Source of the DNA: a virus
Direction: 5' to 3' (one strand)
DNA length: 57,257 nucleotides
Virus record (IMG/VR): IMGVR_UViG_3300045988_170111
Location: 1 to 57,257 of that record
A program made the position numbers and the translations under genes. The notes beneath the pieces are model-generated. The model saw only the letters and a program-made list of their open reading frames with translations, did no database searches and had not been told where the DNA came from. Positions 28,914 to 51,299 of this stretch are shown here, in pieces (the first letter of the stretch is position 1; each line of letters starts with the position of its first letter).

Positions 28914-29389
28914 ATTTGAGCGCGGAAAAACCAAATCGAAGGCCCATTCGGTTATGCTCTGCAGTTTATGATGCGATTGACAGCGAGGCTGCGTACCGTG
29001 GCGAGAAGGCGGGCACTATAGCCAATCGGATACTTGCTGATGAGCTAGATAAGGTCGCAAAGATAGGAATCAAACATTGCGTTGTATATGGTTCAAACAA
29101 ATACAGAAGCATGACGGGGACCGACAGGGAAGGGGAGGAATGGTATATACTTCCCGCAAAGGAAGAAATAGAAAAACACCTTCCATCTAAAAGTGTAGGA
29201 GGTAAATCAAAGCAGGTCAGCTTTTACTTGTCGGACAAACACCTCGCCCTGTTGGAAGAAATTGTGCGTTTGCAGAACATAATTAAAACGGTAGACTTAG
29301 ATGGCAAGATTCATACATTACGATTCGCGGTCGTTGGATTATTGCTTAATAATAAGCTGATTCGCGAAACAGGCGATTATGAGTGTTGA
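28910..29389 (+). CDS. hypothetical protein (possible ribbon-helix-helix N-terminus)
   Basis: 159-aa ORF with an ATGA overlap with parB. Confidence 0.6.
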   Translation: MNLSAEKPNRRPIRLCSAVYDAIDSEAAYRGEKAGTIANRILADELDKVAKIGIKHCVVYGSNKYRSMTGTDREGEEWYILPAKEEIEKHLPSKSVGGKSKQVSFYLSDKHLALLEEIVRLQNIIKTVDLDGKIHTLRFAVVGLLLNNKLIRETGDYEC

Positions 29390-29413
29390 ACTTTGCTGCA
29401 AAGTCTATATAAT
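29386..29413 (+). promoter_or_regulatory. early promoter cassette PE1
   Basis: TTGAAC-TTTGCTGCAAAGTCTA-TATAAT. Overlaps the upstream stop codon. Confidence 0.7.
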
Positions 29414-29492
29414 GGAATCATTAAGATAAGTCATAATGTCACGAACTACAGAGCGAGTGAAACGATGGGTTTTCTTAATACAATAGTTTACA

Positions 29493-29528
29493 AACGGTCT
29501 TCCTTAGCGGCAGACCGTTTTCTGTTGT
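29493..29528 (+). terminator. leader terminator after PE1
   Basis: AACGGTCT-11 nt-AGACCGTT followed by TTCTGTTG. Lies 10 nt before the RBS of the next gene. Confidence 0.6.
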
Positions 29529-29545
29529 GAGAGGAGCGTGAATAT

Positions 29546-30193
29546 TTGAAAATTACCAAAAAGGAAAATCAAAAAAAGGTCGTTTATAATTTCGCTATTA
29601 TTTCTTATCAAAAAGAAGACGAGAAAAGGGTGATTTTGAAGCGACTAACGATTCCGTTGGCGTGTACACCAATCGAGAGCTACGAGGAGTTTTGTGCTGT
29701 TGTAGAGTCGATTGAAAAACAGTACAACCAGAAATATGGAGATGCAACAGTTCTAATTGCTTTGCCGATGGATTTTTTCCGCTTTATTCAGAGATGTGAT
29801 TGGCTTAAACAGACAGCTGAAAATGAGAAGCGTCACATTGTAGTTTCCATTACAGTAAAAAATAAGGCAGACACATCTTTTGTATGGCAAATTTTCAATA
29901 CCGGCTATGGCAGTAGGGAAGTAGAAGCAAGCATTAAGGATTTTTGGCAAAGCGCCAATGGGCTAAAGAAAGTAAAAGACGAAATGAGGAACAGGGGGTA
30001 TCAGGACAGCGACAATCTTTATGTGGATAATGTAAGAATTTTTGATTCCACCGGAAACGAAGGTTGGGATGACACCAATGTTCTCCTGTTTGAGAAGGAA
30101 CAGGAATTTCTTAATAAGGATACTTATATGAATTTCTATCAGGAAATTCCGAAGTCTGTTTTCAACAGCGGACCTGTCGCAGACAAAAAATAG
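29546..30193 (+). CDS. hypothetical protein
   Basis: 215-aa ORF with a TTG start behind GAGGAG. Confidence 0.65.
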   Translation: MKITKKENQKKVVYNFAIISYQKEDEKRVILKRLTIPLACTPIESYEEFCAVVESIEKQYNQKYGDATVLIALPMDFFRFIQRCDWLKQTAENEKRHIVVSITVKNKADTSFVWQIFNTGYGSREVEASIKDFWQSANGLKKVKDEMRNRGYQDSDNLYVDNVRIFDSTGNEGWDDTNVLLFEKEQEFLNKDTYMNFYQEIPKSVFNSGPVADKK

Positions 30194-30203
30194 TATGCCT
30201 ATA

Positions 30204-30238
30204 ACGCCGACCCTCCTTGTTTGGGCCGGTGTTTTTTG
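30204..30238 (+). terminator. intra-operon terminator
   Basis: Imperfect GC-rich stem (CGCCGACCC...GGGCCGGTG) followed by TTTTTTG. No promoter lies before the next RBS. Confidence 0.5.
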
Positions 30239-30255
30239 TTGAAATGTAAGGAGAA

Positions 30256-30780
30256 ATGAAATACATGAAACTCAAAGATTATTTAGAGGATAACGGTGTT
30301 GTTCTCTGGCAAGAAAATTCAGTAAATGGGCCCCAGCAAACAAAGTCTCTTGCTATGTACGATTATGTGGAAGGATTGGACCGCATTCTTGGAAAAATGG
30401 TTTGGATTTGCGATTACCGTGCAAACGAAGACCCCAAGAAAAAACCAATTCGAAATATCGAGCCGACCCCGGTCGTCGTAACAGATGCCAAGGAAACGAG
30501 CAAGGATATTTATTATTCGCCCGTTTATTTCCGACCTGTAAAAAACGGAAAGGTCTCATCCAAAGTCATAGCCCCGATGGACAATACGGGATTTCGGTGC
30601 CATACAGGAGAGTCGGTAAACATTTTCTACACCGTTGAGGATTGTGTAAAGTGTTACCGCGAACAGGTGCGGCAAGCGAAGGCGGTTTACGAAGAAGAGC
30701 TTGCACGTATCACGAAGCTGTTTGATGAAAGAATTAAGAAGCTGGATGCATCACTTGTTCCGTTCGAGGACTACAACTGA
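30256..30780 (+). CDS. hypothetical protein
   Basis: 174-aa ORF with an AAGGAG RBS. An alternative ATG is at 30265. Confidence 0.7.
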   Translation: MKYMKLKDYLEDNGVVLWQENSVNGPQQTKSLAMYDYVEGLDRILGKMVWICDYRANEDPKKKPIRNIEPTPVVVTDAKETSKDIYYSPVYFRPVKNGKVSSKVIAPMDNTGFRCHTGESVNIFYTVEDCVKCYREQVRQAKAVYEEELARITKLFDERIKKLDASLVPFEDYN

Positions 30781-30836
30781 TAAATTTACAAAAAGCATAA
30801 TAATTGTGCGATAGTTATTATCTGCACTTCTAAAAA

Positions 30837-30868
30837 CGGATTTCTCAAACAGAGAAATCCGCTTTTTT
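30837..30868 (+). terminator. intra-operon terminator
   Basis: CGGATTTCTC-aaaca-GAGAAATCCG followed by CTTTTTT. Lies 15 nt before the next RBS. Confidence 0.8.
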
Positions 30869-30882
30869 CACAAAAAAGGAGA

Positions 30883-31185
30883 ATGAAAATGAAAGTAGCT
30901 TTTCTGAAATGTTGGCAAGAAAATTATCCGGAAGAAGGACCGGAGCTCACATGCGCTTTTCTCGACGACATAGAACGCATAAAGAGAGTTTACAATCGCA
31001 GAACTTTAAACGATGCTTCGGTGGATTGCTATGTCCACAATGAGCAGCATGTGAATGCGTCTTACGGGTATCTAAAGGCAGGCGTTCCTGCAACGGTCGA
31101 GGAGTATACGCCGCTGCTCAAAGAACTGTACGCTGTCGGTTACGACAAAAACAGCATCGAAATATGCCAGGATTTCAAATTCTGA
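30883..31185 (+). CDS. hypothetical protein
   Basis: 100-aa ORF with an AAAGGAG RBS. Confidence 0.7.
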   Translation: MKMKVAFLKCWQENYPEEGPELTCAFLDDIERIKRVYNRRTLNDASVDCYVHNEQHVNASYGYLKAGVPATVEEYTPLLKELYAVGYDKNSIEICQDFKF

Positions 31186-31215
31186 TGTAAAAAACGCATA
31201 GAAAGGAAATAAAAC

Positions 31216-31623
31216 ATGGATAGTAGTTGGAAGAATCTTCAGATTCGCATGGAGGCTGCTTGGAATATGCGCACAACCCCTAAAACCAAGCGTCCTAAAA
31301 CCGGTGATATCATCAGCAGCGCACATTCCCTCGATTGGAATAAGAAGAAGGTGCGGCAGCTTCAGCAGCAATGGAACGATGAAGTAACCAAACTTGTGGC
31401 TGACCGCAACAAAGCTATTTCGGATGTCATGGTTGATATCCTCACGCTCATCCGAATGGATATAAAAAGTGCATCTTCTGTCTTTATCAGTCATGATGCA
31501 GCGAAAATGCTTTGGGAAAAGGCGTATGAGTATGGTCATGCAAATGGCTTTACCGATGTCTATTGTGCCATTGAGAACTACGAAGAAGTTGTCATCGAAG
31601 CTTTGAAAGGGAAAGAAAAGTAA
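31216..31623 (+). CDS. hypothetical protein
   Basis: 135-aa ORF with a GAAAGGAA RBS. Confidence 0.65.
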   Translation: MDSSWKNLQIRMEAAWNMRTTPKTKRPKTGDIISSAHSLDWNKKKVRQLQQQWNDEVTKLVADRNKAISDVMVDILTLIRMDIKSASSVFISHDAAKMLWEKAYEYGHANGFTDVYCAIENYEEVVIEALKGKEK

Positions 31624-31648
31624 CTTTGTAAAGGAATGAGAAAAATTT

Positions 31649-32044
31649 ATGGATTTATACGAAGTTGAAAGTAAAATCAAAGAGTTGGAAGCATCCTACA
31701 ATAAAGAGGCAGACAATCTTATGCAGGAGCTCAATGCCTACAAAAAGAAGAACCCGATTCTTCCTATGTATGGAGATGACCCGAATGTCGACAAGATGAT
31801 TGCGAATAAAAATCGAATCATCCGCAGTCAGTACACTCGTCGCGAAAACAAAATCCACAAACTGTGGGAAAAGTTCTACGATGATGTCACGGACATTGTC
31901 ACAGCAGAATATAATCTTCCCACAGATGTAGCCAAACTCGTTGTACAACAAGTGCGTGACCGGGATATAGGGCGCAGCGAACTCGCTTCTTATCTGGACC
32001 ATTATGCAATCTTTGCCGAAACGGTTCTGGACGCTGTGTTTTGA
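31649..32044 (+). CDS. hypothetical protein
   Basis: 131-aa ORF with an AAAGGAA RBS. Confidence 0.65.
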   Translation: MDLYEVESKIKELEASYNKEADNLMQELNAYKKKNPILPMYGDDPNVDKMIANKNRIIRSQYTRRENKIHKLWEKFYDDVTDIVTAEYNLPTDVAKLVVQQVRDRDIGRSELASYLDHYAIFAETVLDAVF

Positions 32045-32098
32045 CGTACTCCCACCCCTTACGCAATGGGCTTCCTTGGCGCCGATTCTGTGAACCTC

Positions 32099-32126
32099 TT
32101 GCGAATCTGTGCGAAGTGGCTAAAAT
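32099..32126 (+). promoter_or_regulatory. early promoter cassette PE2 (degenerate)
   Basis: TTGCGA-ATCTGTGCGAAGTGGC-TAAAAT. Geometry matches the other cassettes and the core is 7/9 conserved. Confidence 0.5.
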
Positions 32127-32156
32127 TATAAATAACAAATAAAAATCAACGTGCAA

Positions 32157-34337
<2,181 letters not shown>

Positions 34338-34346
34338 GGGGGCACT

Positions 34347-34592
34347 ATGTACGACACTAATCGGTTTATCCATGCCGCTGAGCCTTGCGCGTACCATGAA
34401 GCATTTGCCGAGGATATGAGACGCTGCGACAATGCACTTGGTATGGGCGGACTCATGAGCATCAACGCAGAATGCTGGCTCGAAGTATTGAACAGCATGA
34501 CAGATGCTCAGATTGCCGAGTATGTCAACACAAAGTATAAGCCCGGTATTCTGAATCCGTTCATGGACACCTCGCTTTACATCAAGCACTAA
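34347..34592 (+). CDS. hypothetical protein
   Basis: 81-aa ORF with a GAGGGGG RBS. Confidence 0.65.
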   Translation: MYDTNRFIHAAEPCAYHEAFAEDMRRCDNALGMGGLMSINAECWLEVLNSMTDAQIAEYVNTKYKPGILNPFMDTSLYIKH

Positions 34593-34600
34593 TTATATCC

Positions 34601-34640
34601 GCCGTTCCACCTTTCAAGGTGGGGCGGCTTTTGTTTTTCA
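34601..34640 (+). terminator. intrinsic terminator
   Basis: GCCGTTCCACC-tttcaa-GGTGGGGCGGC followed by TTTTGTTTTT. Confidence 0.75.
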
Positions 34641-34694
34641 AACAAACCTGTGGTGAATGTATCGATAAGATTTGCGAACAAGGTAGATTTTTTC

Positions 34695-34722
34695 TTGCGT
34701 TTTGCTGCAAAGTGAGTAAGAT
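34695..34722 (+). promoter_or_regulatory. early promoter cassette PE3
   Basis: TTGCGT-TTTGCTGCAAAGTGAG-TAAGAT. Confidence 0.7.
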
Positions 34723-34802
34723 GAATTATATAAGATAAATCATAGTACCCATATGTAAATGCAGCAAAATGGCTTATCTTATATTCAAAATCTGACAGAG
34801 AA

Positions 34803-34841
34803 AGCAGCCAGTTCGTATGAATTGGTTGCTTTTTTGTTTTT
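34803..34841 (+). terminator. leader terminator after PE3
   Basis: AGCAGCCAGT-8 nt-ATTGGTTGCT (2 G-U pairs) followed by TTTTTGTTTTT. Confidence 0.7.
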
Positions 34842-34861
34842 AAAAAGCGAGGTGAAAATTG

Positions 34862-35392
34862 ATGAATGGTAAAAAAAACAGACTATTTGTAGATATGGAC
34901 GGTACATTAGCAGAATGGCAGGAGGGAACACCTCTTGAAGAAGTATGCGCTCCGGGTTATTTTGCACAATTACCTCCCAACGAAAACATGGCAAAGGCAA
35001 TGATTCGATTCTGGGAATACAGCAGAAAGAACAACATCGAAGTCTTTATTCTTTCGGCTGTGTTCGATGATGGACATTCCATCCGTGATAAAAACGCGTG
35101 GCTTGACCAGTATATTCCGTTTATTGATGCCGAGCACAGGATTTTCGTTTCCTGTGAAGAACCGAAAACAGCATACATCAACGAACATCTTGGCGGCATG
35201 AGCGAAAGCGATATTCTTATCGATGACTACTCCAAGAATATCAAGGAGTGGATTGCTGGCGGCGGCAAAGCAATCAAGATGTTTAATCGTGTAAACGGGC
35301 GCAGCGGGGCTTACTTTGGCCCATATACCTGTTCGTGGCTGCACCCAGATATGATTGTGGAAGATATTAAGCGTCACATCAACGATGCTTGA
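34862..35392 (+). CDS. 5'(3')-deoxyribonucleotidase-like HAD phosphatase
   Basis: FVDMDGTLAEW carries the DxDxT motif. Size of about 176 aa. GAGGTGA RBS. Confidence 0.7.
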   Translation: MNGKKNRLFVDMDGTLAEWQEGTPLEEVCAPGYFAQLPPNENMAKAMIRFWEYSRKNNIEVFILSAVFDDGHSIRDKNAWLDQYIPFIDAEHRIFVSCEEPKTAYINEHLGGMSESDILIDDYSKNIKEWIAGGGKAIKMFNRVNGRSGAYFGPYTCSWLHPDMIVEDIKRHINDA

Positions 35393-35435
35393 TAATTTGC
35401 TCATATAACAAACTCATAGATAGGAGGAAGAAACT

Positions 35436-35678
35436 ATGTTTCTGACAAAGCAGGATTTCCAGAAAAATGTATCGCGGCATGATGGGAAAAGCAAGATTGT
35501 CGTAAAGTTTCACGGCGTGCCCATTTATACATTTTGTCAGGATATCTCCTTTAGGGAGAGCATGATGCTTGCCGAAACCATTGTGTCAGAGATTCTTGAT
35601 GGCAAAAACAAGACAGCCCTCATGAGAATCAATGACATTCTGGAAAAGGAAACAAAGACAGAAAAGGAGGGCGCATGA
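35436..35678 (+). CDS. hypothetical protein
   Basis: 80-aa ORF with a TAGGAGG RBS. Confidence 0.7.
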   Translation: MFLTKQDFQKNVSRHDGKSKIVVKFHGVPIYTFCQDISFRESMMLAETIVSEILDGKNKTALMRINDILEKETKTEKEGA

Positions 35679-37435: not shown

Positions 37436-37855
37436 ATGACAAGAAAAACAGCAATGACAGCAAAGGCTAAAAGCACAACAGGCGCGACATCGCAGACTGC
37501 AAAAACAACAAAGGCAACTGCACCAAAGGAAAAAGCAAAAAAGCCGATTCCTCCAAAAGACTCCGTTAATTCACCGGACAAGAAACCATCAGCAGACAAA
37601 AATGCCGATACCAAGTTTCCGGGCTTTCAAAAAAGAAATGTTGCCGGAGAAAATGTATCAGTGAAGAAAATCGGCGAGTTCGGCATGATAGTGATTCACT
37701 ATCCGACCACAAAAATCAGCGACATTTTATTGTCGGTATGGAACGATAGGGGAGAGACTGTGTTTTACAAGAAGGCAGTAAAAGCAGCGCGTATTGCCGG
37801 AGTGCAGGAACAAATCGCCGAGGCTGAGAAACTCTTGCAAACTGCTGCAAAGTAG
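37436..37855 (+). CDS. hypothetical basic protein (K/T/A-rich N-terminus)
   Basis: Starts MTRKTAMTAKAK behind GGAGGAAG. The low-complexity basic N-terminal half suggests nucleic-acid binding. Confidence 0.6.
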   Translation: MTRKTAMTAKAKSTTGATSQTAKTTKATAPKEKAKKPIPPKDSVNSPDKKPSADKNADTKFPGFQKRNVAGENVSVKKIGEFGMIVIHYPTTKISDILLSVWNDRGETVFYKKAVKAARIAGVQEQIAEAEKLLQTAAK

Positions 37856-37862
37856 ATATACT
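37835..37862 (+). promoter_or_regulatory. early promoter cassette PE4
   Basis: TTGCAA-ACTGCTGCAAAGTAGA-TATACT. Overlaps the 3' end and stop of the preceding CDS. Confidence 0.65.
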
Positions 37863-37909
37863 AAAGACATCCAAAAAATAAAACACACAGACAAATATTC
37901 AAAATCGAT

Positions 37910-37947
37910 ATACCGTTATCTCACACGAGATGGCGGTATTTTTGTTT
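37910..37947 (+). terminator. leader terminator after PE4
   Basis: ATACCGTTATCTC-acac-GAGATGGCGGTAT followed by TTTTGTTTG. Confidence 0.7.
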
Positions 37948-40349: not shown

Positions 40350-40364
40350 AACAAGGGCGTGTAT

Positions 40365-40400
40365 CTTCGGATACATGCCCTTTTTCTTTTGCTTTTCGCT
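40365..40400 (+). terminator. intrinsic terminator after the primase gene
   Basis: GGGCGTGTATC-ttcg-GATACATGCCC followed by TTTTTCTTTT. Confidence 0.8.
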
Positions 40401-40416
40401 GCAAAGTTCCTACAAT
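40389..40416 (+). promoter_or_regulatory. early promoter cassette PE5 (no leader terminator)
   Basis: TTGCTT-TTCGCTGCAAAGTTCC-TACAAT. Short leader AAAAGTATAAGAACC runs straight into the RBS. Confidence 0.65.
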
Positions 40417-41615: not shown

Positions 41616-41643
41616 TTGCATTTTGCTGCAAAGTAGATAAAAT
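41616..41643 (+). promoter_or_regulatory. early promoter cassette PE6
   Basis: TTGCAT-TTTGCTGCAAAGTAGA-TAAAAT. Confidence 0.7.
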
Positions 41644-41687
41644 CGAAGTATAACAGAAATAAAAAACGAATAACCGATTCGCAATGT

Positions 41688-41745
41688 CAGCAGAGTATTC
41701 TGTCTTTGAAAATAAATCAAAGATAGGTACTCTGCTGTTTTATTT
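41688..41745 (+). terminator. leader terminator after PE6
   Basis: CAGCAGAGTA...TACTCTGCTG, a 10-bp outer stem with inner TCTTTG/CAAAGA pairing, followed by TTTTATTTC. Confidence 0.65.
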
Positions 41746-43247: not shown

Positions 43248-43279
43248 ATGGCCGCTCCTCGTGAGCGGTCATTTTTTCT
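43248..43279 (+). terminator. intrinsic terminator
   Basis: ATGGCCGCTC-ctcgt-GAGCGGTCAT followed by TTTTTCTT. Confidence 0.75.
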
Positions 43280-43306
43280 TGCATTTTGCTGCAAAGTTAA
43301 TAGAAT
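43279..43306 (+). promoter_or_regulatory. early promoter cassette PE7
   Basis: TTGCAT-TTTGCTGCAAAGTTAA-TAGAAT. Confidence 0.7.
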
Positions 43307-43323
43307 ATGCTTATATGATAAAT

Positions 43324-43382
43324 AAATGCGCTTGTCGGAATCTGTGTTTTTGAATGGATACCCTCAGGCGCATTTGTTTTTT
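43324..43382 (+). terminator. leader terminator after PE7 (large loop)
   Basis: AAATGCGC...GCGCATTT, an 8-bp stem with a 36-nt loop, followed by GTTTTTTAT. Weaker than the other leader terminators. Confidence 0.4.
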
Positions 43383-43402
43383 ATGAAAAGGGGGTGAAAG
43401 TT

Positions 43403-43748: not shown

Positions 43749-44309
43749 ATGAGAAAAATATTTGACAAATTTGAAAGAATTGACCCATTCATCAAGATGG
43801 CGATGGAGTGTCTTGCTATCTTTATCGCACTTTGCGTTCTTATGCAAGTAGTGCTTTATGAGGCAATCATTCCTTCTGGTTCTATGTACCCGACAATAGC
43901 TTACCCATCGCTTAATTTCGGATATCGATTAGCATATAAAATCAGTGAACCGCAAAGAGGGGATATTGTTTACTTCAAAAGAGACACAGACAATGTAGCC
44001 GAACAACAAGTCTACATTAAACGAATCATTGGCGTTCCCGGTGATGTTGTTGAAGAAAAAGACGGAGTGTTTTATTTAAACGGAGAAGTATTGAAAGAAG
44101 ATTATTTGAACGAAGAACCAGAAAAGTTAAACTTTGGACCGTTCAATGTGCCTGATGGGTGTTATTTCATGATGGGTGACAACAGAAATCATTCCTATGA
44201 TTCGAGATATTGGGATGAACATTATGTTCCTATCGAAAATATTATTGCCAAACATATTATTTGCTTGGGGTCTGCAGAACTGCAAGAATCGCTCGATAAG
44301 TCATCTTGA
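43749..44309 (+). CDS. lepB: type I signal peptidase (S26)
   Basis: IPSGSMYPTI (Ser box), YIKRIIGVPGD (Lys box) and GDNRNHSYDSRYW. N-terminal TM helix. Confidence 0.9.
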   Translation: MRKIFDKFERIDPFIKMAMECLAIFIALCVLMQVVLYEAIIPSGSMYPTIAYPSLNFGYRLAYKISEPQRGDIVYFKRDTDNVAEQQVYIKRIIGVPGDVVEEKDGVFYLNGEVLKEDYLNEEPEKLNFGPFNVPDGCYFMMGDNRNHSYDSRYWDEHYVPIENIIAKHIICLGSAELQESLDKSS

Positions 44310-44334
44310 CCATTGCTGCAAAGTGTTTATACTG
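44307..44334 (+). promoter_or_regulatory. early promoter cassette PE8
   Basis: TTGACC-ATTGCTGCAAAGTGTT-TATACT. The -35 overlaps the lepB stop. Confidence 0.7.
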
Positions 44335-44380
44335 AAAGCATAAGAAAAATCACAACAACAAATCAATCATAATGCTTTTA

Positions 44381-44420
44381 TCGCCTATCCCTATCGAAAA
44401 GGGATAGGCGATTTTTTGTT
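44381..44420 (+). terminator. leader terminator after PE8
   Basis: ATCGCCTATCCCT-atcgaaa-AGGGATAGGCGAT, a 13-bp stem followed by TTTTTTGTT. Confidence 0.85.
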
Positions 44421-44441: not shown

Positions 44442-44657
44442 ATGTACAAATGTCCGTATTGTGGCTCAAAGCGTGTTTTTCGATATATCCATGATTGTGA
44501 TTGGGGTGGGGGAGAAAATTACTATCCCTTAAACCCCGTAGAAGGCACAAATATTTACAACAAATCCGACTTGGATGACCCTACACCGCCCGACATTGAT
44601 ATCTGTCATTGCCGGTATTGCGATATGTTTTTCGAGCCAACCAAAGCGGAAATGTGA
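44442..44657 (+). CDS. zinc-ribbon protein
   Basis: 71-aa ORF with CPYCGS...CHCRYC. TAAGGAGG RBS. Confidence 0.7.
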   Translation: MYKCPYCGSKRVFRYIHDCDWGGGENYYPLNPVEGTNIYNKSDLDDPTPPDIDICHCRYCDMFFEPTKAEM

Positions 44658-44670
44658 AAGGAGAAATAAT

Positions 44671-44973
44671 ATGGCAAAGTGTCAGTGTGGCCGCGAAATG
44701 CTCAAGGCAAATGGCTGCAGATTCAAACGCATTGTTGTTCATGGCAAAAACACAAAGTCTTATGACCGCATCAAGGTTGGCGACCCCGGTGACTGGTACG
44801 AAGAGTATGTAGGGACTCCGGAGGAAAAGAATATCCGCTGCGGCGATTGCGGAGCAAAAATCGGCTTCTATCATCACGCGAATTGCGATAACGAGAGATG
44901 TCCGATTTGTGGCGGCCAGCTTTTAAGCTGCAGCTGTTTTGATGTTTCTGAGTCCGTCGAGTGGAGCGTTTAA
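44671..44973 (+). CDS. Cys-rich zinc-binding protein
   Basis: 100 aa from MAKCQCGREM behind AAAGGAG. Carries CGDCG and CPICGG...CSC motifs. Confidence 0.7.
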   Translation: MAKCQCGREMLKANGCRFKRIVVHGKNTKSYDRIKVGDPGDWYEEYVGTPEEKNIRCGDCGAKIGFYHHANCDNERCPICGGQLLSCSCFDVSESVEWSV

Positions 44974-45006
44974 TGCAAATCAAAAAATAACGAGGAGGTG
45001 TTGATT

Positions 45007-45588
45007 ATGATGCAAAAAGAGTTCGAGGAGCTCACCGGTGTCATCGTCAGCAACAGCGAATATGCTTCGATAGAAAAGGAGTATATGAGCTGCGAAGACG
45101 AAAAAAGAATCTTCTGTAAAAAGTGGGTTAAGAACGGTGGTGCTGCCATGCTTGCAAAGAATCGGCTCGCAGAAATCGAAAGATTGAACGCGCAGGTTCT
45201 TGCGTTGAAAAATGAAGCGTCCGCCCTTCGAGAAAAACTCGACAAAGCACAGAAATGGAATCTTGTGGTCGATAGCAAAAAAAACCAAACAGAGTACGAA
45301 GAAATTGAACGGGATGCATCATCCGGCATCGGTCGTTTTCTTACGGACAAAGAAGCCATTCAGGTAATTGCTGATGAAACAGGCTTTGATAAAGACAAGG
45401 TTATCATTCGCCATAGCGTTTCTGCGTATGAGGTGAGTAATTCCGGAGAGACGAGGAATACGAAACAGATTCCCAGAGAACCCATTTATGTTTCCAGCGA
45501 CTATATGTACATCCGATTCGCCGTAAAGTGCGGTGCATGGTTGGACGAGTATGAGTACATCGATGATGACTTTTCTCGTATCGACTAA
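45007..45588 (+). CDS. hypothetical protein
   Basis: ATG 8 nt after GGAGG. Coiled-coil centre. Confidence 0.7.
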   Translation: MMQKEFEELTGVIVSNSEYASIEKEYMSCEDEKRIFCKKWVKNGGAAMLAKNRLAEIERLNAQVLALKNEASALREKLDKAQKWNLVVDSKKNQTEYEEIERDASSGIGRFLTDKEAIQVIADETGFDKDKVIIRHSVSAYEVSNSGETRNTKQIPREPIYVSSDYMYIRFAVKCGAWLDEYEYIDDDFSRID

Positions 45589-45622
45589 ACAAAAAACAAT
45601 TTATTATACAAAGGAGTAAAAA

Positions 45623-46354
45623 ATGATTAACAAGTATATTGTTGTATGTCCGAATTGTGGTACAAAGCTGATTACGGTATGTTCCAATGCAGCTTCCGAC
45701 ACCTATTGCCCGCAGTGCTATCGGCAGTTACCTCCAGAGCTTTACACGAAAGAACGAAACAATGATGAGGCTCTGGAAATCATTGCAAACAACGAAGGTC
45801 TCAGTGAGGGCTTTGCTGAAACCGTTGTAAACCAGATGGCAAACGACGATGAAGCCCCGCACAATGCCGGTTCTCAGCTCGCGAGAGCTATCAGCGGCAA
45901 CGATGTGAACGATGCGCTGTTGGCATTGACTGGATGGTCTGTTGACAGTCTTCTCGATATGGTTTCGCCTGTTGTGATGGATTGCCCTGATGGTTTCGTG
46001 AACTTTACGGGTATGACATCGCTGATTCCTGAATACGCTTCCGCTATCGTGGAGGTGTTTGAGAACTACCTCGATTCGCTCAACGTTCGTATTCCTTGCA
46101 AAAGTCCTGATGAAGAAAAGGAAAGGGGATACGGAGACAACGACGCGGCGCTGTACGGCAGCGAATACTGGGAGATTGTCGATAACATCGAAGCATGGTT
46201 GAACCAAAACGAAGATGAAGCCTGCAATCTTTCGGATTACTTTATCGAGACAATCAACGAGTTCCTTGATAACAAGGGGTTCGGAAAGTACAAACCGGAT
46301 GCAGAACAGTGCGGCAAGATTAAGGAGAAGGTCGATGCCATCCTGAAAGCCTGA
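45623..46354 (+). CDS. acidic protein with N-terminal zinc ribbon
   Basis: 243-aa ORF with CPNCG...CPQC. The remainder is strongly D/E-rich. Confidence 0.7.
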   Translation: MINKYIVVCPNCGTKLITVCSNAASDTYCPQCYRQLPPELYTKERNNDEALEIIANNEGLSEGFAETVVNQMANDDEAPHNAGSQLARAISGNDVNDALLALTGWSVDSLLDMVSPVVMDCPDGFVNFTGMTSLIPEYASAIVEVFENYLDSLNVRIPCKSPDEEKERGYGDNDAALYGSEYWEIVDNIEAWLNQNEDEACNLSDYFIETINEFLDNKGFGKYKPDAEQCGKIKEKVDAILKA

Positions 46355-46363
46355 TATCGGGTC

Positions 46364-46391
46364 TTGCGTTTTGCTGCAAAGTGAATACAAT
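46364..46391 (+). promoter_or_regulatory. early promoter cassette PE9
   Basis: TTGCGT-TTTGCTGCAAAGTGAA-TACAAT. Confidence 0.7.
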
Positions 46392-46458
46392 GAAAACACT
46401 AAGATAAGTCAAAGTATCATCCGATAGATTTATTTTAGTTCGTAATCTGACAAAGAAG

Positions 46459-46494
46459 CAGCCATCTCCTTCGAGAGGTGGCTGTTTTTATTTT
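46459..46494 (+). terminator. leader terminator after PE9
   Basis: CAGCCATCTC-cttcga-GAGGTGGCTG followed by TTTTTATTTT. Confidence 0.75.
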
Positions 46495-46511
46495 ATGAAA
46501 AGGAGTCTGCT

Positions 46512-47270
46512 ATGCTTGTAAAATTGCTTACCTATACCCCCGAACCCGATAAACTTGTAGCTGCTGCTGCAAAACTATGTTATTCCGATGCCCATATTGA
46601 AACCATTATGGACGGTTTGACCCCTGAAAAAACCGATGCGTTTTTGAAAAAGCTGAGTTCCATGGGACATCAGAGTCCTACTGAACACGCTTATTTCACC
46701 TTCGGTATTGAAGGCGTTTCACGAACGCTCCTCGCTCAAATCACGCGGCATCGAATTGCCAGTTTCAGCGTTCAGAGTCAGAGATATGTTCGCCTCGATG
46801 ATTTTCGGTATGTGATTCCTCCTGTCATTGAAAATGACCCGGAGGCAAAAGCAACATTTATCGAAGCGATGAATCGAGATGCCGAAAACTATCTTAAGGA
46901 AGTTGAGCGTCTTGAAGTTATCCACACAAAAGTGCTTATGGAAAATGGTGCTTCCGAAAAGGATGCTAAAAGAATGGCTTCTAAGTTTGCAAACGAAGAT
47001 GCACGATTCCTTTTGCCCAACGCCTGCGAAACCAAAATGGTTGTAACGATGAACGCAAGAAGTTTGCATAACTTCTTTGCTATGCGTTGCTGCAATCGAG
47101 CGCAATGGGAAATCCATGAACTTGCGGACAGAATGCTGGTTGAGTGCAAAAAAGTCGCTCCGAACCTATTTTTGGATGCAGGACCGAAATGTATGTTCTC
47201 TTCGTGTCAGGAAGGCCCCATGTCGTGCGGAAAAGCAAAAGAAGTAAGAGAAAAGTACAAGGCACTGTAA
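46512..47270 (+). CDS. thyX: FAD-dependent thymidylate synthase
   Basis: ThyX signature RHRIASFSVQSQRY. 252 aa with an AAAGGAG RBS. Confidence 0.9.
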   Translation: MLVKLLTYTPEPDKLVAAAAKLCYSDAHIETIMDGLTPEKTDAFLKKLSSMGHQSPTEHAYFTFGIEGVSRTLLAQITRHRIASFSVQSQRYVRLDDFRYVIPPVIENDPEAKATFIEAMNRDAENYLKEVERLEVIHTKVLMENGASEKDAKRMASKFANEDARFLLPNACETKMVVTMNARSLHNFFAMRCCNRAQWEIHELADRMLVECKKVAPNLFLDAGPKCMFSSCQEGPMSCGKAKEVREKYKAL

Positions 47271-47285
47271 TACGGAGGTGCATCT

Positions 47286-47522
47286 ATGCTTATCAAAAGT
47301 ATCATGTGGGATACGAACAATGACAACGAGGCTCTTGCTTCTTTGCCGGATGAAATCGAAACCCCGAACTTTTTACATCAGGAAGACTACAAGACGATGG
47401 ATGACTTCTTTGCGGCCGTCGCTGAATGGCTGATTTACGAATTTGGCTGGTGTCATTTCGGATTTCAGGCTATTGTAAACGATAACACCTATGATGTCTC
47501 CTATTCCTATACCCCTGATTAA
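47286..47522 (+). CDS. hypothetical protein
   Basis: 78-aa acidic ORF with a CGGAGG RBS. Confidence 0.65.
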   Translation: MLIKSIMWDTNNDNEALASLPDEIETPNFLHQEDYKTMDDFFAAVAEWLIYEFGWCHFGFQAIVNDNTYDVSYSYTPD

Positions 47523-47552
47523 ATACTCTATAACAAGAAAGGAAATTAAATT

Positions 47553-48125
47553 ATGGGACATACGATTCAACACTATGATTATCCCGGAAATGCAGATACG
47601 AAAAAAGTGGAACAGGAGTTGGCGAACTATGTTGCCAAGAGATGCTTCCAAGAGGGAGGTCATCTCAGCAAAATCCGTTGGATTGATTCTGAACCATGTG
47701 CCAATGAAGATGAAGCACGCATAAAAATCGAGCACTTAGATAAGGGATGGTATGATTGCATCGCAGTAAAATACTATGACGCTTACAATATACCCGAAAC
47801 GGAGAAAATTAAGGCGCTGCGAGCAGCCAACACACAAGCCTATTGCAAGTACAACGAACTTGCGTCTGCATTCCATTTTACAAATGCAAAAGCGGAATAT
47901 ATCGGCTGCAAAAATTGCGGCTCCAAGATTGCGCGAAAGTACCTGCGAAGAAATTTTTGCCCTGTTTGCAATGCCGATTTGCGCCCAGAAACAACGCTCA
48001 ACCGCATTGCTGCTCTTAAAGCAAAGGCAGATAAGAGTTCGGATACTCTTAAGGCAGAACTGACAAAGCAGGCAATGAAAGCAAAAAATGTGCGCTGGTT
48101 GGTTAAAATCGAATTTCACGAATAA
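47553..48125 (+). CDS. hypothetical protein with internal zinc ribbon
   Basis: 190-aa ORF with CKNCGS...CPVC. Confidence 0.65.
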   Translation: MGHTIQHYDYPGNADTKKVEQELANYVAKRCFQEGGHLSKIRWIDSEPCANEDEARIKIEHLDKGWYDCIAVKYYDAYNIPETEKIKALRAANTQAYCKYNELASAFHFTNAKAEYIGCKNCGSKIARKYLRRNFCPVCNADLRPETTLNRIAALKAKADKSSDTLKAELTKQAMKAKNVRWLVKIEFHE

Positions 48126-48157
48126 ATAATAAATAGAATGAATGAGAGGAATTAAAT

Positions 48158-48823
48158 ATGAGTGGTACGAGAATTAAAGTCCTTTTTCCTATTGATGAAA
48201 ATGTTCCAATGAACAAGTGCTATGAAGCAACATCAAACGAGTCGATGTACAATGCCTCTACGCTCGATGTCCTCGAAGACGAAGCCGAGAAAGGGCATAC
48301 CTTACGGGATTGCCTGCACAGCGGTAATGAGTGCTTGAAAAACAAGGTACTCGAATATATCTACGACACCATCGTGAATATGTTCAACTGTACTTTCGAG
48401 AATACGAATGACGGCATTACTGGTACGGACGGTTTGTATGCTGTGAGTGAAACATTCGACAAAAGCCTTTGCAACATCTTGGGCGAGGATGTGCCTGACA
48501 GCATTCTGCAGATTGCATTGGATATGCAAACTGACAACTTGACTGCTGTCGAAAACAAGCTCGAAAAGATGCAAGTTCTCGGAAAAACTGTGAACCAGAA
48601 ACTGATTTCCAGTTTAGCAAGAACGCTGGAAGAGAATAATAATGGCTATCTCATTGCAGAAGCTGCGTTCATTATTTCTGGCGGCGTTACTGCCGACTGT
48701 TACAGCGCGTTCCTTGCTCCGAACAGTTACAAGCTGAGAGCGTGGCCGAATCAGAAACAGATGAAAGATATCATCAATCATCCTGAAAAGTACGCTGTGT
48801 TTTCTATTCAGTTCAGCTATTGA
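48158..48823 (+). CDS. hypothetical acidic protein
   Basis: 221-aa ORF with a GAGAGGAA RBS. Confidence 0.65.
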   Translation: MSGTRIKVLFPIDENVPMNKCYEATSNESMYNASTLDVLEDEAEKGHTLRDCLHSGNECLKNKVLEYIYDTIVNMFNCTFENTNDGITGTDGLYAVSETFDKSLCNILGEDVPDSILQIALDMQTDNLTAVENKLEKMQVLGKTVNQKLISSLARTLEENNNGYLIAEAAFIISGGVTADCYSAFLAPNSYKLRAWPNQKQMKDIINHPEKYAVFSIQFSY

Positions 48824-48836
48824 TTGGGAGGTTTAC

Positions 48837-49586
48837 ATGGATAATACAATCGTTTCTCCTGCCGAATACTTCGAACAGGTAAAAAGTCGAAAGCAGACGA
48901 TGACGGCTGCCGGACTTTCTCAGTTATATGAGAACTGCCTTGCTCTTCTCGAAGAGTATCAGCGTTCCGGACAAATTGCTGCACAGAAGAAGCTGCTTTT
49001 CCACATCGACAATATCACACGAGAAAAGAAGCTGCTTGACCTCGGCATTGATACCTTTGTCTACAAGAGTGATGTGGACGATTTCATCCACATGGTAGAT
49101 AACAAGGTTGTTAAAATCGTGGAGCTGGAAAATTACCAGCGGCGGATTCCGGAAGAAATCATTCAGAGAATCGAACGCTGCAAGGGTATTTTCGATAAGA
49201 TGTATGTAGTCTTTACGGATTACACAAAACGCGAAGAGCGAAGAGTCGAGGCCATCAAAAGAGAAAAAGACCCCATTCTTTTTGGAACTTTCCAAGATAC
49301 CGCAACAAGAACCGTGGTAGAACGCTTTTATTTCATCGGCGATTGGACGGATGAATATTGCGATTTAACATTGGATAAAATGGTTGCTGTTGTCAAAGAA
49401 AAGGCCGACAGGGACATCGTAAAGAAGTTCTCTACGCCGGAAAGCATCCGCGAGTTGAGCGACCAGCTTAACAATCTGGATGAGTCCATGAATGGGTTGT
49501 ACCGCCAGCGCGAAAAGGCTCCTGCGCCCAAGAAAGGGTTCTTCGACCGAGTACGCACAGCGTTTCGTTCTCTGAAAGGAGAATGA
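48837..49586 (+). CDS. hypothetical protein
   Basis: 249-aa ORF with a GGGAGG RBS. Confidence 0.7.
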   Translation: MDNTIVSPAEYFEQVKSRKQTMTAAGLSQLYENCLALLEEYQRSGQIAAQKKLLFHIDNITREKKLLDLGIDTFVYKSDVDDFIHMVDNKVVKIVELENYQRRIPEEIIQRIERCKGIFDKMYVVFTDYTKREERRVEAIKREKDPILFGTFQDTATRTVVERFYFIGDWTDEYCDLTLDKMVAVVKEKADRDIVKKFSTPESIRELSDQLNNLDESMNGLYRQREKAPAPKKGFFDRVRTAFRSLKGE

Positions 49587-49587
49587 A

Positions 49588-50007
49588 ATGGCAAAAGTGG
49601 ATTTGACCGAGGATGAAGTCTATTCGCGGCTTCGCTCTGTTTCTAATTCAAAAGGAAACGGCATTTACGATGCTTTACGTTCTGCCGATATTCCTTGGGA
49701 CTTTTCTTCTCCTTTTACTTTGCTTCGTGTCGTTCGCACAGAAGCAGAATTGACACCGCTGGTTTTTACTGGTGATGCAGAGACTGTCAACTTTATGAAA
49801 GAGGTTGCGGAGGTAGAAGAAGGGAAAAGATGCGATTGCTGCGGTCAACTTATCACAACACCCTTATGGGATATGCCCTATGGTTCATTGTGCGATGAAT
49901 GCAGCAAGCGCCTTGACGAGCAGGTTCACGGCAAATATGAAACGCCTTGGCAAAAAGTAGAACAGGGAATGGAAGAGCGTTCCGTTCCTTGGTGGTTTGA
50001 CCTTTGA
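49588..50007 (+). CDS. hypothetical protein with CxxC pairs
   Basis: 139-aa ORF with CDCCG...CDEC. Starts 1 nt after the upstream stop. Confidence 0.65.
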   Translation: MAKVDLTEDEVYSRLRSVSNSKGNGIYDALRSADIPWDFSSPFTLLRVVRTEAELTPLVFTGDAETVNFMKEVAEVEEGKRCDCCGQLITTPLWDMPYGSLCDECSKRLDEQVHGKYETPWQKVEQGMEERSVPWWFDL

Positions 50008-50024
50008 TGTCAGAGAGGAAATAA

Positions 50025-50489
50025 ATGAGTAGATGGAATGTTTTTTGTAACGAAAACGCTCCTTATCGTATTTATTATCGCCAAATTGAGATTGATGGAT
50101 ATGAGATGTATGTCATGTTTCCATTGCCAATGACTGGCATGGAATGTGGCTGGGCAGTATCGCATGGTGCAACTACGGCAGCTACCATTCAGGAAGCTGT
50201 TCAAAAGTTTTATCCCTTTATGGTAGAGTATATCTGTGATAAAGAGGATTCCGACAACGATACACAGCAATACATTCTCAAAAACCTCAACTCTCTTGGC
50301 AACTCAGTGGATTTTTGGGGCAGAAAAAATGACCGTCAGCATGTCATTGATGGCATGAGCGCAGCGCAGAAATCGCAGCTTTTGTGCTACATTCTGCGAA
50401 ACCATGAAGCCTTTGGCAAGATGACTTGTCGTGACTGGCAGAATTGGCTGCTGGATGACGCTGAACCTCAGTTTGGCATCTGGTTCTGA
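50025..50489 (+). CDS. hypothetical protein
   Basis: 154-aa ORF with an AGAGAGGAA RBS. Confidence 0.65.
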   Translation: MSRWNVFCNENAPYRIYYRQIEIDGYEMYVMFPLPMTGMECGWAVSHGATTAATIQEAVQKFYPFMVEYICDKEDSDNDTQQYILKNLNSLGNSVDFWGRKNDRQHVIDGMSAAQKSQLLCYILRNHEAFGKMTCRDWQNWLLDDAEPQFGIWF

Positions 50490-50548
50490 TAACAAAAAAC
50501 GACAGACAACATTCTGACCCAGAACAGAAAGAAAAGGAAAATTATTAT

Positions 50549-51214
50549 ATGAGTTACGGTTTTAGTATGGGCTTCGCGCATGCAGACAGTTTGCAGGAAG
50601 CCATGAAGATTGCGCTGGAATATACGCAGTCTCAGATGACAGAAAAGAATGTCAAAAAGACCATCAAGGACAATCGGTATTATATTCCATCGGTTCGTAC
50701 CGGATACATTGCGGATGCAGAAAGCAAAACACGCAGGGCTGATGTGCTTGCAGATACTGCCGACAGATATTGGCTCGAAGCGCTGTTTACCTTTCGCTTT
50801 CTGTATTGGGAAGAGCACAAGCTGCTCGGTATCGTTATGATGCCGTCTGAAAGTGTAAGCGAAAAATGGCCGCTCAGTGTGTATTTTCAGAACTCCTGCG
50901 ACCATGATTATCCGTTTTCCGAATGGAAGGAAGGCAATATCCCGTTCTTTATGAACGCCGCTGCAAAAGCTGAAAACTATACGGCAGAAGAAATCCGTGA
51001 AAAGGTTGACTACGAAATCGAAGATGATGACATCGAATATTTTCGGCGCAGCACCTGCTATGATGATATTTTCGAGACCCTCGCCTTCGATTCGTGGCTT
51101 TATAACCATGATACGGATGTGCCGTTTGTGACCTTTGCTCTACAGGGAATCCGGAATGAAGCAGAGCGATACCGGTATCTGCAATGGTTGAAAGATGATA
51201 TCATGAAAATTTAA
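50549..51214 (+). CDS. hypothetical protein
   Basis: 221-aa ORF with an AAAAGGAA RBS. Confidence 0.65.
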   Translation: MSYGFSMGFAHADSLQEAMKIALEYTQSQMTEKNVKKTIKDNRYYIPSVRTGYIADAESKTRRADVLADTADRYWLEALFTFRFLYWEEHKLLGIVMMPSESVSEKWPLSVYFQNSCDHDYPFSEWKEGNIPFFMNAAAKAENYTAEEIREKVDYEIEDDDIEYFRRSTCYDDIFETLAFDSWLYNHDTDVPFVTFALQGIRNEAERYRYLQWLKDDIMKI

Positions 51215-51223
51215 TGTATATGG

Positions 51224-51252
51224 GGCCGCTTCGTTTTGAAGCGGCCTTTTTC
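51224..51252 (+). terminator. intrinsic terminator
   Basis: GGCCGCTTC-gtttt-GAAGCGGCC followed by TTTTTC. Confidence 0.8.
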
Positions 51253-51271
51253 AGTCATCTCGAAAATGATG

Positions 51272-51299
51272 TTGCGGTTTGCTGCAAAGTTACTATAAT
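51272..51299 (+). promoter_or_regulatory. early promoter cassette PE10
   Basis: TTGCGG-TTTGCTGCAAAGTTAC-TATAAT. Confidence 0.7.

Follow-up and report, generated by a model that had tools for sequence, protein, structure and literature searches.

A repeated promoter, leader and terminator module with a conserved 13-bp spacer element in a putative Hodor-type megaplasmid of human-gut Bacillota

We analysed a 57,257-nt stretch of viral-database DNA (IMG/VR record IMGVR_UViG_3300045988_170111, positions 1 to 57,257; hereafter the window) for a promoter cassette that recurs ahead of its genes. The left part of the window holds minus-strand phage structural genes. To their right lie a Rep_3 replication gene (Rep3_N/C at 24945-26432), parA (26765), parB (27591), a gene for a 159-amino-acid (aa) protein and then the cassette-headed genes, among them ligA and thyX. 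Each cassette forms a module of roughly 80-160 bases made up of a promoter, a leader RNA and a built-in terminator, which is followed by a ribosome binding site (RBS) and gene. An earlier reading of this DNA, the original prediction, had described ten such promoters as a phage early regulon of about 27 kb controlled through one shared site in the promoter spacer.

The core of that site, GCTGCAAAGT, occurs exactly nine times in the window and on the plus strand only (29395, 34704, 37844, 40398, 41625, 43288, 44315, 46373 and 51281). The chance expectation is 0.12, and a count of nine was reached in none of 100 dinucleotide shuffles. All nine exact cores lie within the pattern TTGCnT-N3-GCTGCAAAGT-N3-TAnAAT with at most three mismatches, whilst the expected number of such matches is 0. 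A tenth, degenerate copy (TTGCGAatcTGTGCGAAGTggcTAAAAT) stands ahead of ligA at 32099-32126. When both strands were scanned for weaker copies with a position-weight matrix made from 39 non-redundant cassette copies (at least 12 bits), this was the sole site found beyond the nine exact ones. In six window copies TTT precedes the core, giving the palindrome TTTGC-T-GCAAA. The spacer measures 16 nt in all copies, and the element spans -25 to -16, or -28 to -16 with the preceding T-rich triplet. The ten predicted cassettes, the six palindromic copies, the spacer length and the position of the element were all confirmed, with a single start corrected from 44307 to 44306. Motif and matrix scans found no copy at the window's rep, parA and XRE promoters or at the minus-strand structural genes, in agreement with the predicted absence from the rep, parA, XRE and late promoters. 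Relaxed 13-mer searches of the window gave no convincing copy outside a promoter context. Megablast of window positions 29-47 kb against phage and plasmid collections returned no match, and in the literature the motif string was found only in primers.

The 39 non-redundant copies share a clear promoter anatomy. Their logo begins with tc-TTGC at -36 to -31, where TTG at -34 to -32 is present in 38-39 copies and C at -31 in 30/39, followed by two free positions. The 13-bp block TTTGCTGCAAAGT then occupies -28 to -16, with each position identical in 34-39 of the 39 copies, whilst the positions on either side of it (-30/-29 and -15 to -13) are near-random, at less than 0.3 bit. The -10 hexamer is TAtAcT at -12 to -7. 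Its T-12, A-11 and T-7 are found in 39/39 copies; these three bases were required when the copies were collected, and all ten window copies satisfy them independently. The predicted +1, 7 nt after the -10, is an A in 37/39 copies and has a pyrimidine at -1. An A-rich box follows at fixed spacing (+6 to +15), and no indels occur from the promoter up to +16. Upstream of -36 the sequence carries no information and is not AT-rich, and there is neither an UP element nor a TG extension. Three TTGC/GCAA units in direct-direct-inverted order span -34 to -19. A co-directional RBS and gene lie 29-153 nt downstream of the cassettes. With these features the cassettes look like sigma-A-type promoters that would initiate at the predicted A.

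Because the invariant positions are interleaved with near-random ones, recent copying alone is insufficient to explain the pattern, which indicates position-specific purifying selection on the spacer block (37-39 of 39 identical). The polymerase of ordinary sigma-70/sigma-A promoters reads -28 to -16 without base specificity. Something else must therefore recognise the conserved block, and it is reasonable to infer a shared protein-recognition site.

Conservation also extends downstream of the promoter into the transcribed leader and terminator, a feature missed in the original prediction. After the A-rich box, the leader passes through a variable insert, a TTCAAAATC box, a linker of 5-14 nt, a hairpin and a T-run before reaching the RBS. 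Nine of the ten window copies have a leader hairpin followed by a T-run (-12.8 to -28.5 kcal/mol), with the promoter 40-100 nt ahead of it. Eight of the ten pass a strict terminator threshold, for which the background is about one site per 820 nt, or ~19% per 170 nt (binomial P ~5e-5). In the wider collection, which comprised 58 distinct cassette copies once near-duplicates had been removed, 48/58 carry a leader terminator. An alignment of 23 hairpins shows covariation in the outer stem, where 6/13 pairs have compensatory changes. The apical six pairs keep YAUCUC/GAGRUG and vary only via U.G wobbles, which are functional on the plus strand only. Hairpin and promoter are coupled: a promoter lies no more than 220 nt upstream of 24/26 distinct hairpins of the family, and a scan for the hairpin alone gave matches confined to the same contigs, with a promoter 77-81 nt upstream of all seven new hairpins. 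The leader hairpins thus have the properties of intrinsic terminators, with predicted termination points.

Two types of leader were distinguished by the structure of their 5' region. In type I, the 5'-terminal 10-14 nt base-pair with a stretch lying 20-45 nt further on, and the resulting 5' hairpin begins at the predicted +1 in 7/9 copies, which is indirect evidence that the RNA begins there. Individual folds showed compensatory changes between copies (ACU.../...AGU, AUC.../...GAU and AUU.../...AAU); RNAalifold on a mixed alignment did not recover the 5' hairpin, and individual folds were used instead. Type II leaders have an A-rich 5' region without structure. The TTCAAAATC box by itself is not enriched in the window. 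Rfam 15 gave no gathering-threshold match in the window and, at E values up to 5, only chance-level hits over 29.3-51.6 kb, and a tRNA search of the window found none. A Shine-Dalgarno-like GAGGUG in the right arm of the hairpin and a mini-open reading frame after it were judged coincidental. An origin of the hairpin from an integron attC-like site or an IS200/605 end was rejected, since neither flanking features nor an integrase accompany the hairpin, which is moreover coupled to the promoter.

The cassette is far more widespread than the window. A relative, a 346-kb contig of which 95 kb was read, carries at least 36 co-oriented copies from 23 to 276 kb. A motif scan of IMG/VR recovered near-identical relatives of the window together with many copies in contig parts otherwise unlike it. 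Thus the ten window copies of the predicted set stand but its limit of ~27 kb does not, since relatives hold many more copies outside the region homologous to the window. The genes behind the cassettes include replication, nucleotide-metabolism, CRISPR-Cas, restriction, conjugation-related and surface-protein genes. As judged from sequence comparison, the cassette is a general start module of a megaplasmid, present at least 36 times across 250 kb. A scan of genome-collection representatives of 185,579 species gave 81 single matches against ~70 estimated by chance, and no genome had more than one. With no multiple copies and a total near chance, the cassette is not a host chromosomal promoter type.

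The element carrying the cassettes matches the described features of Hodor-type conjugative megaplasmids of human-gut Bacillota. The window's exact ParA protein is found on at least 1000 metagenomic contigs, the longest of 397 kb, in neighbourhoods comprising Rep_3, ParA, ParB, the 159-aa gene and then the same genes as in the window. Pieces of these large contigs carry genes for a type IV secretion system (T4SS) coupling protein, TraX, type I-C Csd1 and Cas7, NrdD, a topoisomerase and GmrSD. Upstream of Rep_3, the region from 22.8 to 24.9 kb is mostly without open reading frames (ORFs) of 60 aa or more and has a GC content of 0.37-0.40. At least 11 iteron-like repeats (AAAAAAnAAAACTCCTTTTAT) lie within 23000-24820, in ~2 kb of low-GC non-coding sequence that probably serves as oriV. 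The promoter of rep, immediately downstream of the iterons, is canonical (TTGACA-17-TAGTAT). Hodor megaplasmids are conjugative elements of 211-389 kb from human-gut Bacillota with a T4SS, type I-C CRISPR-Cas and occasional intact prophages, and their replication block combines Rep_3, a >2-kb upstream non-coding AT-rich region and ParA/ParB (PMC12934698). They are known only from a 2026 preprint, with related reads in more than 9,000 human-gut or wastewater metagenomes and hosts that have not been cultured; none of the words promoter, terminator, intergenic, regulat- and sigma occurs in the preprint (PMC12934698).

The phage genes of the window have a separate origin. Prophage-free relatives align with the window only from 18825 rightwards, so 1-18824 is an inserted prophage. 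It carries the minus-strand structural genes, a serine recombinase (17510-18265) and an XRE protein (18392-18643), its TerL is 50% identical to that of Clostridium innocuum phage Maintenon, and the insert splits an 894-aa VWA-domain gene of the megaplasmid. The window is hence not a phage-plasmid with early and late regulons, and the proposed phage early regulon gives way to a megaplasmid into which a prophage has inserted.

This also bears on the regulator. The XRE protein had been put forward for this role, but its gene lies inside the prophage and the cassettes are kept in relatives that lack the prophage, so it is not the regulator. The 159-aa protein encoded downstream of parB, also suggested earlier, and ParB itself are unlikely candidates by inference. 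Both are conserved in relatives without a cassette in the neighbourhoods examined, relatives with a 95% identical ParB lack the cassette, and the par-operon repeats (AGCAACAGAAAC; three copies upstream of parA, window 26529-26724) differ in sequence from the cassette element. The repeat AGCAACAGAAAC looks like a par-operon or ParB-type site doubling as an operator. In diverged relatives it is found again within promoters or directly behind them (L231 at ~4464 on the minus strand and ~8460 on the plus strand; L225 at ~5080 on the plus strand), including, in L231, the promoter of the T4SS coupling-protein operon.

Searches for other regulators covered ~30% of a full element, and the absence of a regulator from them is therefore weak evidence. 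A phmmer search of 5876 ORFs from 706 kb of related loci found no sigma-70-family, NusG or RfaH homologue, and none appeared in the Pfam scans. Pfam and PHROG scans gave no antiterminator family in the Pfam results for ~190 proteins, among the top 25 families per batch. One possible candidate came from locus L024, where a variant cassette on the minus strand (GCTGCATAGT, at reverse-complement 9517), lacking a leader terminator, drives an orphan ParB-family protein. This 360-aa protein (contig 3300023499_000220, near 239.5 kb) has a ParB_N match and a GERRxRA motif and is Spo0J/Noc-like, and might be a KorB-like regulator.

Next, we compared relatives that lack the cassette. Two IMG/VR contigs of 90-97 kb, L225 and L229, share rep-parAB-159aa with the window at 86-88% nucleotide identity, and the homology ends at the upstream edge of cassette 1 (L225/L229 ~7788-7800, window 29378-29387). 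Neither has cassettes, both contigs being absent from the complete IMG/VR motif scan. The lineage with this rep-parAB but no cassettes includes IMG/VR records 3300045988_183103 and 3300029668_000156. This shows a modular exchange of the replication and partition block. A tRNA-like gene lies downstream of the divergence point in L225/L229. In a further relative, L223, an IS605-family TnpB element (12617-13982) is inserted between window positions 29380 and 29381, at the same upstream edge; it has its own cassette-like promoter (TGGACG-ttt-GCTGCAATGT-gaa-TACAAT) without a leader terminator. More distant relatives, with a ParB of 48-75% amino-acid identity, have canonical TTGACA promoters with unrelated spacers and no cassette, and probably include a second Hodor group. 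No alternative stereotyped cassette was seen in the ~20 kb read from each of L230-L232. Recognition of the cassette thus appears to be element-specific and is unlikely to be generic to the host. One of these diverged relatives, L231, carries nine tandem 21-bp repeats (TATAGTGTACAGTAAACCGTG) at 13004-13200 that could be oriT or iteron-like; two genes separate them from a relaxase gene ~1.8 kb downstream of the repeats.

The full promoter sequence was also met outside these elements. A mobile nrtR-pncB-pncA locus of Lactobacillaceae (L035, L037, L040, L041, L044, L053, L065, L076, L092, L093, L099, L103 and L107), found in several genera and often on short contigs, has as its only obvious promoter TTGCAT-TTTGCTGCAAAGT-ATT-TATACT, identical to the cassette 28-mer (e.g. 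L037 2888-2915, minus strand). Seven aligned promoter regions showed ~96% mean identity, and no Hodor genes lie nearby. The 28-mer may be there by coincidence or shared origin, and the locus raises the possibility that the cassette promoter may work with sigma-A alone. At this locus the promoter is followed by a AAATAAAAGT-N7-ACTTTTATTT palindrome, which is likely the NrtR operator.

Taken together, these features suggest a reading that we hold tentatively, as plausible though short of probable: sigma-A promoters carrying a recognition site for one element-encoded factor, more likely a repressor, combined with attenuation in the leader. Each copy would be a self-contained transcription-unit start module of a Hodor-type megaplasmid. 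Its promoter, of the host sigma-A type (-35 TTGC, 16-nt spacer, -10 TAtAcT), would hold in the spacer the 13-bp TTTGCTGCAAAGT with its core TTTGC-T-GCAAA. The transcript would run from the conserved A through a leader of 40-100 nt, with an A-rich or 5'-hairpin start and the UUCAAAAUC box, and would meet the intrinsic terminator just ahead of the RBS of the first gene. The 13-bp element would be the DNA site of the factor, coupling all of the at least 36 units into one regulon, and the factor may act as a spacer-occluding global repressor, like KorA/KorB of RK2 or C1 of P1. The leader terminator would form a second layer, attenuating transcripts that have been initiated and insulating each unit from the one upstream. 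We lean towards a repressor because the site fills the spacer, because this is a common design of plasmid regulons and because the 28-mer is seemingly an ordinary promoter in Lactobacillaceae.

Several points weigh against this reading. The regulator was not found in the ~30% of the element that was read, and the window has no separate autoregulatory or titration sites, the element occurring only inside promoters. The basal promoter is modest, with a -35 of only TTG plus a non-consensus C, a 16-nt spacer, no TG and no UP element, and this weak-promoter profile suits dependence on an activator at least as well as repression. The CRISPR-Cas, restriction, signal-peptidase and surface genes behind cassettes would be expected to be on in the carried state. 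The original prediction had a bound protein occluding or remodelling the sigma-A promoters. A shared site in such promoters is upheld by the promoter features and by selection on the spacer, but occlusion alone leaves the conserved leader and terminator unexplained; a repressor model likewise does not account for the fixed-spacing initial transcribed box, the terminator or the conserved apical stem. All transcription start and stop points are predicted, as are protein binding to the element and the sign of its action.

The features left over by repression would be gathered up by a promoter-loaded antitermination mechanism resembling that of lambdoid Q proteins, which we nevertheless regard as unlikely. 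Here the promoters would be constitutive and the spacer element would be the loading site of a factor that boards RNA polymerase in early elongation over the conserved +1 to +16 and lets it resist the leader and later terminators; without the factor, each unit would give only a leader RNA of 60-110 nt. One factor would then cover the invariant promoter element, the fixed-spacing initial region, the terminator and the coupling of promoter to terminator, more than a single factor explains under any other reading. Over 250 kb all copies point the same way, an arrangement that would make read-through harmless, and Gram-positive conjugative elements commonly use processive antitermination (PMC8191782, PMC11658703). 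The initial transcribed region, however, contains no clear sigma-dependent pause element. T at +7, the equivalent of -7, occurs in only 9/39 copies, and although T at +2 and A at +6 are each found in 29/39, the -10-like hexamers in +1 to +12 are inconsistent, and alternative registers differ from one leader type to the other. The portion of the element that was read showed no homologue of the Q family, NusG or RfaH, although coverage is partial and Q families are diverse. The mechanism also has no need of the conserved apical stem sequence, which on an antitermination reading could be a second, RNA-level recognition point. Q systems are not known outside lambdoid phages of Proteobacteria, with one per genome, which counts against such a mechanism here. 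A distributed switch, in which one antitermination factor would license at least 36 units of a ~350-kb megaplasmid, for example after conjugative entry, is similarly improbable.

There is also a small chance that TTGC-N2-TTTGCTGCAAAGT is bound by an element-encoded activator or a divergent sigma-like factor, so that weak promoters would fire only with the megaplasmid's own protein, in the manner of lambda cII at its TTGC repeats or T4 MotA. This would fit the C at -31 in 30/39 copies, the unselected -30/-29, the constant 16-nt spacer and the lack of TG and UP elements, set against the canonical rep promoter of the same element. The direct-direct-inverted TTGC/GCAA units at -34 to -19 and the lineage-specificity of the cassette element point the same way. 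Yet the portion of the megaplasmid that was read yielded no sigma-70-family protein, and the cassette element lies wholly within the spacer, a position from which most known binders block RNA polymerase. MerR-type regulators are the exception but require spacers of 19-20 nt instead of 16, and the MotA box at -30 replaces the -35, whereas the cassettes retain TTG at -34 to -32. Moreover, the same 28-mer apparently serves the Lactobacillaceae pncB operon with no Hodor genes nearby.

A further reading, also unlikely, is that the unit is a portable module for recombination or insulation that has no trans factor dedicated to it. Such a module would spread by recombination, like the PeSL cassettes of T4-type phages, and persist for its standard 5' end, its stabilising 5' structure and the insulation it gives, its sequences serving as homology patches for shuffling. 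In its favour, whole units of ~105-120 nt, such as that of cassette 4, are 80-85% identical between otherwise unrelated loci. Homology breakpoints fall in cassette intervals in 20/111 cases against 6.4% expected, a ~2.8-fold enrichment of events that are non-independent. The rep-par homology of L225/L229 ends at the edge of cassette 1 (29378-29387), the IS605/TnpB element of L223 was inserted at 29380/29381, and PeSLs offer a documented precedent (PMC2839356, PMC4122927). Recent spread, however, cannot yield 13 invariant positions amid near-random ones, nor a covarying outer stem with an invariant apical stem. Neither of two indels examined between close relatives is flanked by a cassette pair, and the order of promoter then terminator attenuates the module's own transcripts, whereas the PeSL stem-loop lies upstream of its promoter. 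The idea is compatible with any regulatory reading and does not replace one. The pattern of selection contradicts a factor-free module as the sole explanation, but such a module may describe how the unit spreads.

Other promoter mechanisms were dismissed on anatomy: a T7-like or N4-like phage RNA polymerase promoter, as the -35, -10 and spacing fit sigma-A and a 3-nt gap is variable; a sigma-54 promoter, as there is no GG at -24; and, ruled out by the 16-nt spacer of every copy and the position of the block, MerR-type activation (a dyad in a 19-20-nt spacer) and T4 MotA/AsiA (a box at -30, 11-13 nt from the -10), the block being centred at about -22/-23 and ending 3 nt before the -10.

Among known systems, the regulon of RK2/RP4 (IncP-1) offers one comparison. 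There, KorA operators OA overlap the -10 and KorB operators OB (TTTAGCSGCTAAA) lie upstream of the -35 or at a distance; RK2 has 7-12 operator sites, and its promoters have no leader terminators. As in RK2, a short palindrome shared by the promoters of numerous operons on a large conjugative plasmid would join them into one circuit, and the palindromes are alike in size and style (TTTGC-T-GCAAA here, TTTAGC-S-GCTAAA in RK2). The orphan 360-aa ParB-family paralogue of the cassette megaplasmid (L024) recalls KorB. Unlike RK2, the cassette element sits inside the spacer at -28 to -16, there are at least 36 sites, and leader terminators are present. A KorB/ParB-type regulon is also set apart by the par-operon repeats AGCAACAGAAAC, which differ from the cassette, and no regulator has been linked to the cassette site. 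The C1 repressor of P1 acts at ~17-20 asymmetric 17-bp operators scattered over the genome and controls lytic functions. The cassettes share with it many dispersed, partly asymmetric operators overlapping promoters in a plasmid-replicating element, but they stand on a conjugative backbone in which the prophage is a separate insert, and P1 units lack the leader and terminator. No C1 homologue turned up, though no search was aimed at C1.

The lambda Q-binding element lies between the -35 and -10 of PR', with one qut per phage in Proteobacteria. Like this PR'-qut-tR' arrangement, the cassettes combine a DNA element between -35 and -10, a conserved initial region and a leader terminator that would yield a short RNA. 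They differ in being present in at least 36 copies on a Bacillota megaplasmid, in having no convincing pause hexamer and in the lack of any Q-like protein among those found.

PeSLs of T4-type phages place a stem-loop and an AT-rich UP region first and a host-consensus promoter after, and their mini-circles and recombination have been demonstrated (PMC2839356, PMC4122927). Both PeSLs and cassettes pair a short sigma-70-type promoter with a terminator stem-loop of partly conserved stem, repeated many times in a large mobile genome and, for the cassettes tentatively, at module boundaries. In the cassette, however, the promoter precedes the terminator and there is no UP element, whilst PeSLs lack an invariant spacer element. 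Compared with PeSL recombination, only a modest, non-independent breakpoint enrichment was seen here, with two junctions at the edge of cassette 1 and two indels elsewhere. In conAn of pLS20 and canT of Tn916, the element encodes an override of terminators within or ahead of operons, and these terminators curb spurious transcription (PMC8191782, PMC11658703). conAn2 and canT are, however, single large structured cis-acting RNAs that head one long operon, unlike the cassette leaders, which are short, often unstructured, present at every unit and tied to a promoter DNA element; no conAn-like match was found for them.

The cassette is thus a stereotyped start module of a large mobile element and not a member of the KorA/KorB, C1, PeSL, qut or conAn/canT systems. 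The 13-bp element and the leader terminator heading most backbone operons would be the first visible piece of the Hodor control circuit. The element can serve as bait for the regulator and as a compact signature for finding related elements, and it provides a natural system in which to ask how a very large plasmid, probably of broad host range, standardises and restrains the expression of ~350 kb of cargo. Were the antitermination reading true, promoter-loaded antitermination would extend beyond lambdoid phages, with a Q-like logic applied genome-wide in Bacillota.

Table 1. Promoters, leaders and related hairpin of the cassette family in the window. Start points and terminators are predicted.
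Feature	Position	Strand	Details
Cassette 1 promoter	29386..29413	+	TTGAAC-ttt-GCTGCAAAGT-cta-TATAAT; predicted +1 = A at 29420
Cassette 1 leader	29420..29527	+	5' hairpin from +1 (AUUAAGA...UCUUAAU); terminator hairpin 29493-29519, T-run; gene start 29546
Cassette 2 promoter, degenerate, before ligA	32099..32126	+	TTGCGA-atc-TGTGCGAAGT-ggc-TAAAAT
Cassette 2 leader	32133..32196	+	terminator hairpin 32157-32188 then TTTTC
Cassette 3 promoter	34695..34722	+	TTGCGT-ttt-GCTGCAAAGT-gag-TAAGAT
Cassette 3 leader	34729..34843	+	5' hairpin; TTCAAAATC box 34784-34792; terminator hairpin 34798-34835, T-run; gene start 34859
Cassette 4 promoter	37835..37862	+	TTGCAA-act-GCTGCAAAGT-aga-TATACT; overlaps 3' end of upstream ORF
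Cassette 4 leader, type II	37869..37947	+	AUCCAAAAAAUAAAA; TTCAAAATC box 37898-37906; terminator hairpin 37910-37939 (ACCGUUAUCUC/GAGAUGGCGGU), T-run
Cassette 5 promoter	40389..40416	+	TTGCTT-ttc-GCTGCAAAGT-tcc-TACAAT; RBS and gene start 40451
Cassette 6 promoter	41616..41643	+	TTGCAT-ttt-GCTGCAAAGT-aga-TAAAAT
Cassette 6 leader	41650..41745	+	long terminator hairpin 41688-41737 then TTTTATTT; 5' ACAGAAAUAAAA complementary to U-tract region
Cassette 7 promoter	43279..43306	+	TTGCAT-ttt-GCTGCAAAGT-taa-TAGAAT
Cassette 7 leader	43313..43386	+	A-rich 5' box = left arm of terminator hairpin 43321-43378, T-run
Cassette 8 promoter	44306..44333	+	TTGACC-att-GCTGCAAAGT-gtt-TATACT; overlaps signal-peptidase stop codon
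Cassette 8 leader	44340..44420	+	terminator hairpin 44380-44412 (CGCCUAUCCC/GGGAUAGGCG), T-run
Cassette 9 promoter, before thyX	46364..46391	+	TTGCGT-ttt-GCTGCAAAGT-gaa-TACAAT
Cassette 9 leader	46398..46496	+	5' hairpin from +1 (ACUAAGAUAAGUC/GAUUUAUUUUAGU); AAUCUGACA linker; terminator hairpin 46455-46488 (GCAGCCAUCUC/GAGGUGGCUG), T-run
Cassette 10 promoter	51272..51299	+	TTGCGG-ttt-GCTGCAAAGT-tac-TATAAT
Cassette 10 leader	51306..51412	+	terminator hairpin 51364-51404 (CGUCUAUCUC/GAGAUAGGCG), T-run
Orphan hairpin of the cassette family, no cassette promoter upstream	19540..19572	+	GCCGCUGUCUC-GAAA-GAGAUAGCGGU then TTTTTT

The individual copies (Table 1) vary in a few respects. Alone among the window copies, cassette 5 has no leader terminator; a terminator lies directly upstream of it (40353-40382). 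For cassette 2, gene callers applied to relatives place the ligA start ~90 nt past 32184. The orphan hairpin is probably the plain 3' terminator of a 95-aa gene at 19244-19531. Just beyond it, a 183-aa ORF (19577-20128) has a borderline HTH_38 match that may be spurious, since gene callers on relatives prefer a minus-strand ORF of 72 aa. At four cassettes an ordinary terminator lies just upstream of the -35 (34601-34628, 40353-40382, 43248-43272 and ~51215-51247), giving these unit boundaries a terminator-promoter-terminator layout.

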